Positions 2,299 to 4,090 of a stretch of DNA of 64,000 nucleotides are shown here, piece after piece. The DNA is taken from sequence record OZ336095.1. One strand, 5' to 3'. The stretch is from a phage. Numbering within the stretch: position 1 is the first letter of the stretch; each line of letters starts with the position of its first letter. The translations under genes and the position numbers were made by a program. The notes under the pieces were generated by a model. The model was not told where the DNA came from, searched no databases, and saw only the letters and a list, made by a program, of their open reading frames with translations.

Positions 2299-2684
2299 AA
2301 TGACCTCAAAGTTATATTAAATTTTGTATTACGTTGAGTATAAAAATAAGCTATAACACCTGACTTGTCAACAGATTTTATAGCTTATTTGGCAGATTTT
2401 TTATAAGGCTACTGCCATCCTTCCATACCATACCACACCAAACCACACCATACCGAACCACACCCTACCAAACCCGACCAAACCCGACCGAGCATCACTT
2501 AAAAATCCTCTTAGAAGACTCTTAAGTGATGTAATCGAATTTTTATGTAGCTCCGATTAACTACCCGCACTTTACCAAACCTCACCCTACCCTACCAGAC
2601 CTTACCTAACCGCGCCGTACCTCATTAAAAGACCCTCTTAAAGACCTTTTAAAAAGGAGCCTCCGAAGAGGCTACCTAGTCAAC
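2299..2684. repeat. Structured intergenic element A: C-rich/G-poor ACC-type tracts plus conserved double-hairpin module
   Basis: Inverted repeat catcacttaa...ttaagtgatg followed by aatcgaattt...cgattaactaccc; shared with 3731..4090. Confidence 0.6.
2646..2673 (-). terminator. Rho-independent terminator for minus-strand gene pair
   Basis: Hairpin agcctc-cgaa-gaggct; T-run on minus strand (plus cttttaaaaa). Confidence 0.5.
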
Positions 2685-3125
2685 TTAGAAAGGTTTTCTA
2701 CGTTGCTTGTTAATGTTAGCTTTCATAGCAGCTAAATGGTTTTGCTGTTCAATCAGTCGTGAGCGTTCTTGATGGCTAAGTGCCATAGTGTTCACATTCT
2801 CAATCGCTTGAGTGGCTTGCTTTAAAGCACGACCAATCTTACCAGACATTTTACGTTTTGCAATAGTTGCTTGATGTTTAGGTTCAACCACACGATAGCC
2901 AACACCCATTGAAGCAACCAGATAAATCTTCTCTTCTTTAAGAAGCTTTTCAATAAACTTCTCAAGTCGGTTTAGTCGTGTAAGTGCATAAGCCTTCATT
3001 TCATCTTCGTACTTAACAATGTCACCTTGATAAGTTGGCTTCACAATACCTAAGAAGGTGTCCATCTCAGAATGTGATACAGTGTCACCGTAACTGAACT
3101 TTGCTGCTAATGCTTTTGTATTCAT
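2685..3125 (-). CDS. Hypothetical protein, 146 aa
   Basis: ORF track; first gene of a two-gene cassette flanked by repeated structured elements. Confidence 0.5.
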   Translation of the reverse strand: MNTKALAAKFSYGDTVSHSEMDTFLGIVKPTYQGDIVKYEDEMKAYALTRLNRLEKFIEKLLKEEKIYLVASMGVGYRVVEPKHQATIAKRKMSGKIGRALKQATQAIENVNTMALSHQERSRLIEQQNHLAAMKANINKQRRKPF

Positions 3126-3127
3126 AA

Positions 3128-3730
3128 TTAAACGTTACCTTCTGAAATAACTTCTACAGAAAAACGACCAAAGCGTGGACGCCAATCACCTACACCACAA
3201 AGGTTACCAGCATTTTCCAGAACCATCAAGAGTTCCTCTTTGGTGATTTGCTCTTCATCGAACATCAAACCGAACTCTACAGACCAGTCACGGAAGATTG
3301 GACGGTAGCTCATAACTCGTGCTGTACCAATCTTAACAGACTTAGCATAGATAAAGTCTGGATTCTTAGCAAGTTCTTGTGGGTTTGCTGGACAGTTCTT
3401 GATAGTCATTGGGAAGACTACATCTGTCAGCATAATGGCTCGGTCAATTACCTTACCAAGTTTGTTGAGTTTTGCACCAGACTTGATACAAGCCTCAATC
3501 ATCTCACCGTTCATAACAAAACCTAGCTGCTCATCGTAGTAACAAGAGGTTACCAGTTGGCTTTCTGCTAAGAGCGCATAGTCTTCGTCAGTCTTTTTAC
3601 GCTTACTGGACAGAGACTTGTGATATTTTGTCAGAGGGTTTAATGGGTCTGACAGTGTATCGTTATGGCTCAGGAAAGGACGAGTACCAGTGATTTTGAT
3701 ATTTAACAGTTTCATAGCATTTAGCTCCAC
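3128..3730 (-). CDS. Hypothetical protein, 200 aa
   Basis: ORF track; second gene of the flanked cassette. Confidence 0.5.
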
Positions 3731-4090
3731 ACTTTAGTTTATTGTTAAGTTGTTTGTAAAGAACCCTCAACAGAAGACTCTTTAGAAACTTGGTAGATTT
3801 TTAACGTGGCTACTACCATCCACCCACACTTTACCATACCTCACCGCGCCTTACCCGACCGGGCTGCACCTTGCCTTGCCAAACATCACTTAAAAACCCT
3901 ATGAGATAACCTATCGAGTATAATTTAAAGGCTCTTAAGTGATGCAATCGAATTTTAATGTAGCTCCGATTAACTACCCATACCCTACTTTGCCTTGCCG
4001 TACTGTACTTTACCCGACCATACCGGACAATACTTAACCCGACCTCGCCCTACCGGACATCACTTAAAAACCCTCTTAGAAAGACTCTTA
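3731..4090. repeat. Structured intergenic element B: C-rich/G-poor tracts plus two copies of the catcacttaa...ttaagtgatg hairpin
   Basis: Shares about 60 nt module (hairpin + aatcgaatttt.atgtagctccgattaactaccc) with element A; second hairpin copy at about 4050..4090. Confidence 0.6.

Follow-up and report, generated by a model that had tools for sequence, protein, structure and literature searches.

The region at positions 2390-4155 of the phage sequence in record OZ336095.1, of which a stretch of 64,000 nucleotides (nt) was analysed (the window), is very probably a VIPR (Viral Interference Programmable Repeat) locus of type II, the orthologue of the one in phage SUSP1. Sequence analysis resolves it into the protein-coding genes vipr and vap1 and four predicted guide-RNA (vrRNA) genes, all on the minus strand; two of the guide genes (B1 and B2) lie upstream of vipr and two (A1 and A2) downstream of vap1. 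An initial annotation, made from the letters alone, had described a two-gene cassette between two related non-coding elements, referred to here as element B (upstream) and element A (downstream). The inverted repeat, the shared module (2533-2566 and 3946-3979) and the C-rich, G-poor plus-strand tracts that it reported are all present where it placed them, and cassette and flanks do form one functional unit. The region is matched by 252 phage records, and the window belongs to a Felix O1-like phage of the genus Felixounavirus, with Escherichia phage allfine as the best match (97% identity).

As described in two preprints of 2026, a VIPR locus comprises the RAMP-like protein Vipr, an accessory vap gene, and flanking vrRNAs of ~100 nt. 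Each vrRNA has 9-16 YNNGG repeats (Y being T or C) followed by an invariant tail, folded in the SUSP1 clade as a pseudoknot. Vipr itself is RAMP-like and small (~20 kDa), and has a G-loop and a thumb besides its RRM core (bioRxiv 10.64898/2026.04.26.720920, 10.64898/2026.04.26.720927). The two protein-coding genes of the window are:

3128..3715, minus strand: vipr, 195-amino-acid RAMP-like guide-RNA-binding protein, 191/195 identical to PDB 36pp_D
2685..3125, minus strand: vap1, 146-amino-acid accessory protein, 145/146 identical to the product of the gene next after vipr in SUSP1

The 195-residue protein matches PDB 36pp chain D, entitled 'SUSP1 Vipr protein', with an E-value of 6e-128, and exceeds the 90% identity cut-off of the SUSP1 clade (bioRxiv 10.64898/2026.04.26.720920, 10.64898/2026.04.26.720927). 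Thirteen of the 14 RNA- or DNA-contact residues named in the structure preprint are kept (H17, K33, R39, E71, M72, K82, G87, K88, R138, C173, D177, W178 and R179). The start of vipr is most likely the ATG at 3715, giving the 195 amino acids annotated in relatives, and not 3730; vap1 starts 3 nt after vipr, in a two-gene operon arrangement. From the preprint's locus description we infer that the SUSP1 gene matching the 146-residue protein is vap1. Pfam has no family for either cassette protein, and PHROGs returns families of unknown function only. The order ligase, vrRNA, vipr, vap, vrRNAs, 127-amino-acid gene is the same in SUSP1.

Both elements contain tracts with a strict 5-nt period (TRF periods 5, 10 and 15), in which the unit is ACCNN when read along the plus strand and YNNGG along the minus strand, and within the 64-kb window a phased-CC signal of such strength occurs only at these tracts. 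They correspond to four predicted guides:

3978..4057, minus strand: vrRNA B1 guide, 16 YNNGG repeats
3824..3883, minus strand: vrRNA B2 guide, 12 YNNGG repeats
2565..2619, minus strand: vrRNA A1 guide, 11 YNNGG repeats
2423..2492, minus strand: vrRNA A2 guide, 14 YNNGG repeats

Among 44 unique guides from relatives, the first position of the unit is Y in 100%, the fourth is G in 80% and the fifth is G in 99%, and the NN positions are near uniform. Across 16 related loci, identity to the window is 94-98% for the two genes and only 75-92% for the elements, because the tracts vary in NN sequence and in unit number; read side by side, the elements conserve leaders and tail module, and the tracts keep their GGY phase. 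Rfam finds nothing on the region at E<=10, and nothing on the whole window at the gathering score except tRNAs.

On the plus strand the tracts hold 26-34 C and 5-11 G per 55-80 nt (for 2423-2492, C 34, A 27, T 4 and G 5), a composition that had suggested Rho-utilisation (rut)-like sequences, in which C-rich plus-strand RNA would load Rho and terminate antisense transcription across the cassette. Rut sites share with the tracts a C-rich, G-poor strand over 55-80 nt, and the footprint of Rho is close to the tract lengths of ~55-80 nt. Composition, however, does not account for the strict 5-nt phase of the tracts, for the hypervariability of NN, or for the conservation of the third base, which is Y on the minus strand; rut sites have neither a strict period nor a conserved partner gene, whereas among the matches listed in the database scan described below a Vipr homologue lies on the G-rich strand in 34/45 arrays. 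A single promoter-like site was found on the plus strand (3409-3436), and its 9/12 match is no better than chance would give; the functional strand here is the opposite one, the minus-strand RNA being the product according to the preprints (bioRxiv 10.64898/2026.04.26.720920,.720927). The C-richness of the plus strand arises merely because it is the complement of the conserved GGY on the transcribed minus strand, and we regard Rho loading as an extremely improbable explanation.

Each guide is followed by a tail of 32-33 nt. The module with a second inverted repeat in the initial annotation is this tail; the second repeat is in fact two interleaved stems, which form an H-type pseudoknot. The predicted tails are:

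3946..3977, minus strand: vrRNA B1 3' tail, pseudoknot type T1 (GTAG/CTAC + AATCGG/TCGATT)
3791..3823, minus strand: vrRNA B2 3' tail, pseudoknot type T2 (GTGG/CCAC + TGGTAG/CTACCA)
2533..2564, minus strand: vrRNA A1 3' tail, pseudoknot type T1
2390..2422, minus strand: vrRNA A2 3' tail, pseudoknot type T3 (AAGG/CCTT + TGGCAG/CTGCCA)

Four variants of this one pseudoknot were found, with GTAG/CTAC, GTGG/CCAC or AAGG/CCTT as the first stem and AATCGG/TCGATT, AGTCTC/GAGACT, TGGTAG/CTACCA or TGGCAG/CTGCCA as the second. Structure-preserving variation, the lack of which would have spoken against the initial annotation, is present: when 16 distinct tails are aligned, pairing holds in 98.6% of cells, 8/9 pairs show change on both sides, and the covariation score is 0.705, which 0/500 shuffles reach, versus <=0.216 for slid partners. 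The rare G-T pairs in the stems occur on the sense strand only, as expected of folded RNA.

The locus shares with that of SUSP1 the 98% identical Vipr and 99% identical Vap1, the gene order, the YNNGG architecture, the T2 and T3 tails and the satellite family; the B2 tail is identical to that of the upstream SUSP1 vrRNA. The two differ in that the window phage is a Felixounavirus and SUSP1 a Suspvirus, in the arrangement of vrRNAs (2+2 here, 1+3 in SUSP1), in guide sequences, and in that two of the window tails are T1 (AATCGG/TCGATT), whereas the SUSP1 region compared shows T1' (AGTCTC/GAGACT).

A role of the elements at the level of DNA was also considered, either as a replication origin—by an R-loop-prone G-rich transcript, iterons or a primase-site array—or as a G-quadruplex regulator. 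The predicted promoter would fire into a G-rich, C-poor transcript, and two-tetrad quadruplexes could arise from the GG runs, which are spaced 3 nt apart. Third-position T/C and the pseudoknot covariation, with G-U tolerated on the minus strand only, point instead to folded RNA; the published structure accounts for every conserved position; the region has no iteron-binding or initiator gene; and nearly half of the relatives do without the element. Normal replication of phages that lack the cassette, Felix O1 among them, would speak against an origin here. The probability of this alternative is close to nil, and nothing in the region indicates the origin-like sequences that had been suggested. 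The suggestion of protein-binding sequences fared better, in that the repeats would be bound by the cassette's own Vipr, one protomer per 5-nt repeat, although as guide RNAs and not as DNA. The identification of Vipr likewise superseded several earlier candidates: an R-loop origin, two-tetrad G-quadruplexes and primase recognition-site arrays; sponges for Shine-Dalgarno sequences or tRNA 3' ends, and recombination hotspots of the Chi type; and a TRAP-like ring protein wrapping 11-13 triplets, which as an RNA-wrapping oligomer was the closest in spirit. TRAP on the trp leader RNA, and the assembly origin of tobacco mosaic virus, resemble the vrRNAs in having a conserved base or triplet that recurs once for every stretch of RNA bound by one subunit, but their protein folds are unrelated and those systems have neither programmable positions nor DNA targeting.

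SUSP1-clade guides are reported to aim mostly at an E. coli satellite phage, natural VIPR targets lying in competing elements and the skipped base tending toward the codon wobble position (bioRxiv 10.64898/2026.04.26.720920,.720927). A 68-nt stretch of B2 (its last units plus tail) matches intergenic DNA in 66/5426 complete E. coli genomes; the surrounding DNA is a ~12-kb integrated element with genes for a serine recombinase, a tape-measure protein and a baseplate protein. This agrees with the satellite of the preprint, and relatives of the element are present in 560/5426 of the genomes. When the skip rule was re-derived with the guides of relatives in a satellite locus, there were six matches at >=80% NN with a skip of 1, and 0, 0 and 0 with skips of 0, 2 and 3. 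The window guides were then scanned over 13 satellite loci, picked by similarity, with shuffled-unit guides as decoys. The best matches, in the satellite locus L154, are:

L154 8577-8531: guide B1, 29/32 NN (shuffled maximum 24), sense in the 184-amino-acid first gene of the main operon, skipped base at wobble
L154 6600-6631: guide A1, 21/22 NN (shuffled maximum 19), 57-88 nt upstream of a 234-amino-acid satellite gene
L154 2019-1979: guide A2, 24/28 NN (shuffled maximum 22), antisense in the serine-recombinase gene, skipped base at wobble
No site: guide B2, 17/24 NN (shuffled maximum 20), decoy level, no convincing target found

All three best sites lie in one satellite variant, that of E. 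coli ECE228 (NZ_CP196312), and under other skip rules the window guides remain at decoy level in the 13 loci. Sequence matching thus directs three guides out of four, at 86-95% of their NN positions, to a single family of ~12-kb E. coli satellites, and the function of the locus would be the repression of a satellite that parasitises this phage. No self-targeting at >=0.8 NN was found in the 64-kb window (~22 kb of the phage genome lies outside it), the best values outside the locus being 0.64-0.73.

Scans of IMG/VR with exact 10-unit cores gave one contig for A2 (L140, 23/28) and four related contigs for B2 (L141-L144, 20-21/24), in which the skipped base lies off the wobble position; in all five hits the flanking units agree no better than by chance, ~0.1-0.2 hits are roughly expected by chance, and the hit genes have no protein family. 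Against one genome per species, the full 12-unit B2 pattern gave zero matches, and the single match of its 10-unit pattern, in a Dehalococcoidales metagenome-assembled genome, was discarded as chance level.

The satellites carry related sequences of their own. One vrRNA gene with a T2-like pseudoknot tail is found in 9/13 satellite loci (L135-L139, L147, L151, L152 and L154; for example, L154 10928-11030), preceded by its own sigma-70-like promoter. Several of the satellite guides match other satellites at 22-23/26 positions; against this phage, all of them stay at decoy level. Because none of the 13 satellite loci scanned contains a vipr gene, the satellite guides presumably use the Vipr of the helper phage.

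In the proposed mechanism, one Vipr protomer would bind each 5-nt repeat, with the GGY bases buried and the NN dinucleotides presented; these dinucleotides would pair with double-stranded DNA, every third target base being skipped, and the Vipr-guide filament would form an R-loop triplex that silences transcription of the target. Expression of ~100-nt vrRNAs, Vipr binding and transcriptional silencing have been demonstrated for SUSP1 only (bioRxiv 10.64898/2026.04.26.720920,.720927), and we infer the same mechanism in this phage from the 98% protein identity and the identical architecture. Several points weigh against the assignment as a VIPR locus. The mechanism rests on two preprints that are not yet peer-reviewed. 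The 14th contact residue, T175 in the preprint, is V175 both in the window Vipr and in the PDB chain, which is probably a numbering or text issue in the preprint. The ends of the vrRNAs in this phage are predicted from sequence, and any role of its hairpin leaders is putative; guide B2 has no target above decoy level in the 13 satellite loci; and the target assignments, resting on loci chosen by similarity, could shift with a pangenome search.

The presence of the cassette varies among related genomes, a comparison that the initial annotation had proposed. By tblastn, vipr is present at >=90% identity in 118 phage records, and about 108/253 related records have a contiguous junction of the Felix O1 type, indicating no cassette; within the genus the VIPR locus is an accessory trait, found in about half of the related records. 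Felix O1 itself (L145, AF320576; 1100-1381) has neither vipr nor vap, and has one hybrid, partly degenerate vrRNA in the spacer between the ligase and 127-amino-acid genes. This hybrid combines a B-type promoter and leader with an A2-type tail, and has lost the GG in 4/11 units. By rough counts from record names, carriers make up 77/120 Escherichia-named and 17/76 Salmonella-named records, which would fit a satellite target living in E. coli. The papers on the Felix O1 genome and on Bas63 gene essentiality do not mention the elements.

This polymorphism bears on the reading of the flanks as sites of recombination or insertion by which the two genes would pass from genome to genome. The absence of the cassette from about 108/253 related records and its presence in 118, and the single hybrid element left in Felix O1 (B-type 5' half, A2-type tail), are in its favour. 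The location and neighbours are nevertheless the same in every carrier, including SUSP1 of another genus; there is no transposase, integrase or terminal inverted repeat, the flanks being direct repeats; and the hybrid remnant fits a deletion between direct repeats, which would be a by-product of the repeats rather than their function. We consider a mobile cassette very unlikely, and the boundaries proposed for it in the initial annotation are not borne out. Because Felix O1 retains a hybrid guide, cassette loss looks like a deletion by homologous recombination between the flanking guide genes, acting as direct repeats.

The inverted repeat CATCACTTAA/TTAAGTGATG occurs three times (2493/2522, 3884/3935 and 4058/4088), always inside the two elements; the search for the hairpin elsewhere, which had been suggested, found no further copies in the 64 kb. 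The predicted leaders are:

4058..4097, minus strand: 5' leader hairpin of vrRNA B1, CATCACTTAAG...CTTAAGTGATG, RNA fold -16.5 kcal/mol, z -5.3
3884..3944, minus strand: 5' leader hairpin of vrRNA B2, same arms and larger loop, fold -21.7 kcal/mol, z -6.1
2493..2531, minus strand: 5' leader hairpin of vrRNA A2, fold -21.1 kcal/mol, z -7.3
2620..2648, minus strand: linear 5' leader of vrRNA A1, AAGGTCTTTAAGAGGGTCTTTTAATGAGG, 3' half resembling by eye the 3' half of the hairpin leaders

Hairpin leaders (CATCAC) stand directly 5' of the guides B1, B2 and A2, and A1 has the related linear leader instead. The two VIPR preprints contain no description of a hairpin-leader role or of 5'-end formation in type II vrRNAs. 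The promoter spacer of several satellite vrRNAs (L135, L136, L138, L139, L147 and L152), ~60 nt upstream of the vrRNA, contains CATCACTGTGATG; this palindrome, the outer arms of which are CATCAC/GTGATG as in the phage leader hairpins, could be a shared protein-binding site. We tentatively propose, with rather less than even confidence in the three parts jointly, that the leaders are an undescribed element of vrRNA biogenesis or control in type II arrays, that the cassette is repeatedly lost through guide-gene recombination, with a solo, decaying guide left behind as in Felix O1 and with carriage following the host, and that B2 is aimed at a competitor not yet sequenced or searched.

An additional role of the elements in cis, compatible with a VIPR locus, would be autoregulation of vipr and vap by binding of Vipr to B1 and B2 in the 5' leader of vipr mRNA. 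Of the promoter-like sites upstream of vipr, the strongest (11/12) is 5' of B1, and a weaker site (TTTACA-18-TAAAGT, 9/12) is located at 3760-3731, between B2 and vipr; the discrete ~100-nt vrRNAs reported in the preprints (bioRxiv 10.64898/2026.04.26.720920,.720927) speak against it, and on balance such a role is unlikely.

In sense order the features are the DNA ligase gene (5449..4313), a gene for a 48-amino-acid membrane peptide, element B, the 195- and 146-amino-acid genes, an intrinsic terminator, element A, a promoter, and the 127-amino-acid gene. The predicted signals are:

4128..4155, minus strand: sigma-70-like promoter TTGACA-16-TATACT (11/12), upstream of vrRNA B1, vrRNA B2 and vipr
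2649..2673, minus strand: intrinsic terminator AGCCTC-TTCG-GAGGCT followed by a T run, 3' of vap1
2343..2390, minus strand: hairpin with 19-bp arms holding the promoter TTGACA-17-TATTTT of the next gene (127 amino acids, 2298..1915)

The promoter at 4128..4155 is kept in relatives and in SUSP1, and is an annotated promoter in phage AYO145A. The open reading frame for the 48-amino-acid peptide (4163-4309, minus strand), between the ligase gene and this promoter, is swapped for an unrelated ~190-nt segment in SUSP1 and in one IMG/VR relative; other relatives have neither.

A scan of IMG/VR for seven phased GGT triplets returned at least 120 stretches. Among the matches listed are microsatellites and many unrelated contigs with arrays of 9-15-unit variable-NN tracts, separated by a short contig-specific delimiter. 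Clustering of open reading frames places a homologous ~200-amino-acid protein on the G-rich strand in 34/45 of these arrays (the window's own locus being counted), mostly within ~100 nt of the nearest tract, and the window gene 3128..3730 falls in the same cluster; because 34/45 arrays encode the homologue, tracts and protein are a conserved pair. Longer arrays, with up to ~15 consecutive guide tracts, occur among the matches listed in unrelated viral contigs (L112, L036, L026, L042, L033 and L119), with short contig-specific delimiters such as GGCAGTT, GGCTAATG or GGAATGGTTTAATGAATTTAATT; these are probably other VIPR types.

According to the preprints, VIPR resembles Class 1 CRISPR-Cas (the Cas7 RAMP filament on crRNA) in that a RAMP-fold protein polymerises on a guide RNA and a thumb flips bases out periodically; in both, the guide consists of a variable part and a constant handle. 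Unlike CRISPR-Cas, VIPR has no repeat-spacer array, Cas1/Cas2 or protospacer-adjacent motif, buries 3/5 of the guide bases, reads its target with a 1-nt skip, is phage-encoded, and silences without cutting. The locus in the window does not have the direct repeats of ~24-48 nt and unique spacers of a CRISPR array, only 5-nt units, tails and leaders being repeated, and no cas-like family was found among the neighbouring genes.

Other features lie elsewhere in the window. An apparently non-coding stretch of ~1.4 kb at 47050-48420 is dense in short motifs: 20 of the 53 TTGTTAR copies in the window fall within 47354-48396, 18 of those 20 on the plus strand, together with CTATAAAG and CTTAAAAG motifs and several 11-12-nt tandem arrays across the stretch, which could serve as an origin or in regulation, or mark an end of the genome. 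ARAGORN predicts a cluster of 26 tRNA genes at 58411-63556 (plus strand), 24 of them confirmed by Rfam. There is also a perfect tandem duplication of a 36-nt unit (GCACTTTAAACGTAACCCTTCGTCACTATGTGAACG) at 42740-42812, and a (GA)12 dinucleotide run at 26506-26529.

VIPR is a newly reported way for RNA to read DNA, by a gapped code in which 2/5 guide bases read 2/3 target bases, and has been proposed as an ancestor of the CRISPR RAMP proteins. The system being already known, and this phage being closely related to the one in which it was characterised, the window adds no new principle, and shows that VIPR is recognisable from raw sequence alone. The published 1-nt-skip rule is reproduced independently, and the residual interest, going beyond the preprints, lies in the leader hairpins, the loss polymorphism of the cassette and the fourth guide, B2, which has no assigned target. 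For this phage, the analysis provides a concrete map from guides to targets, in which three predicted guides would converge on one satellite family.

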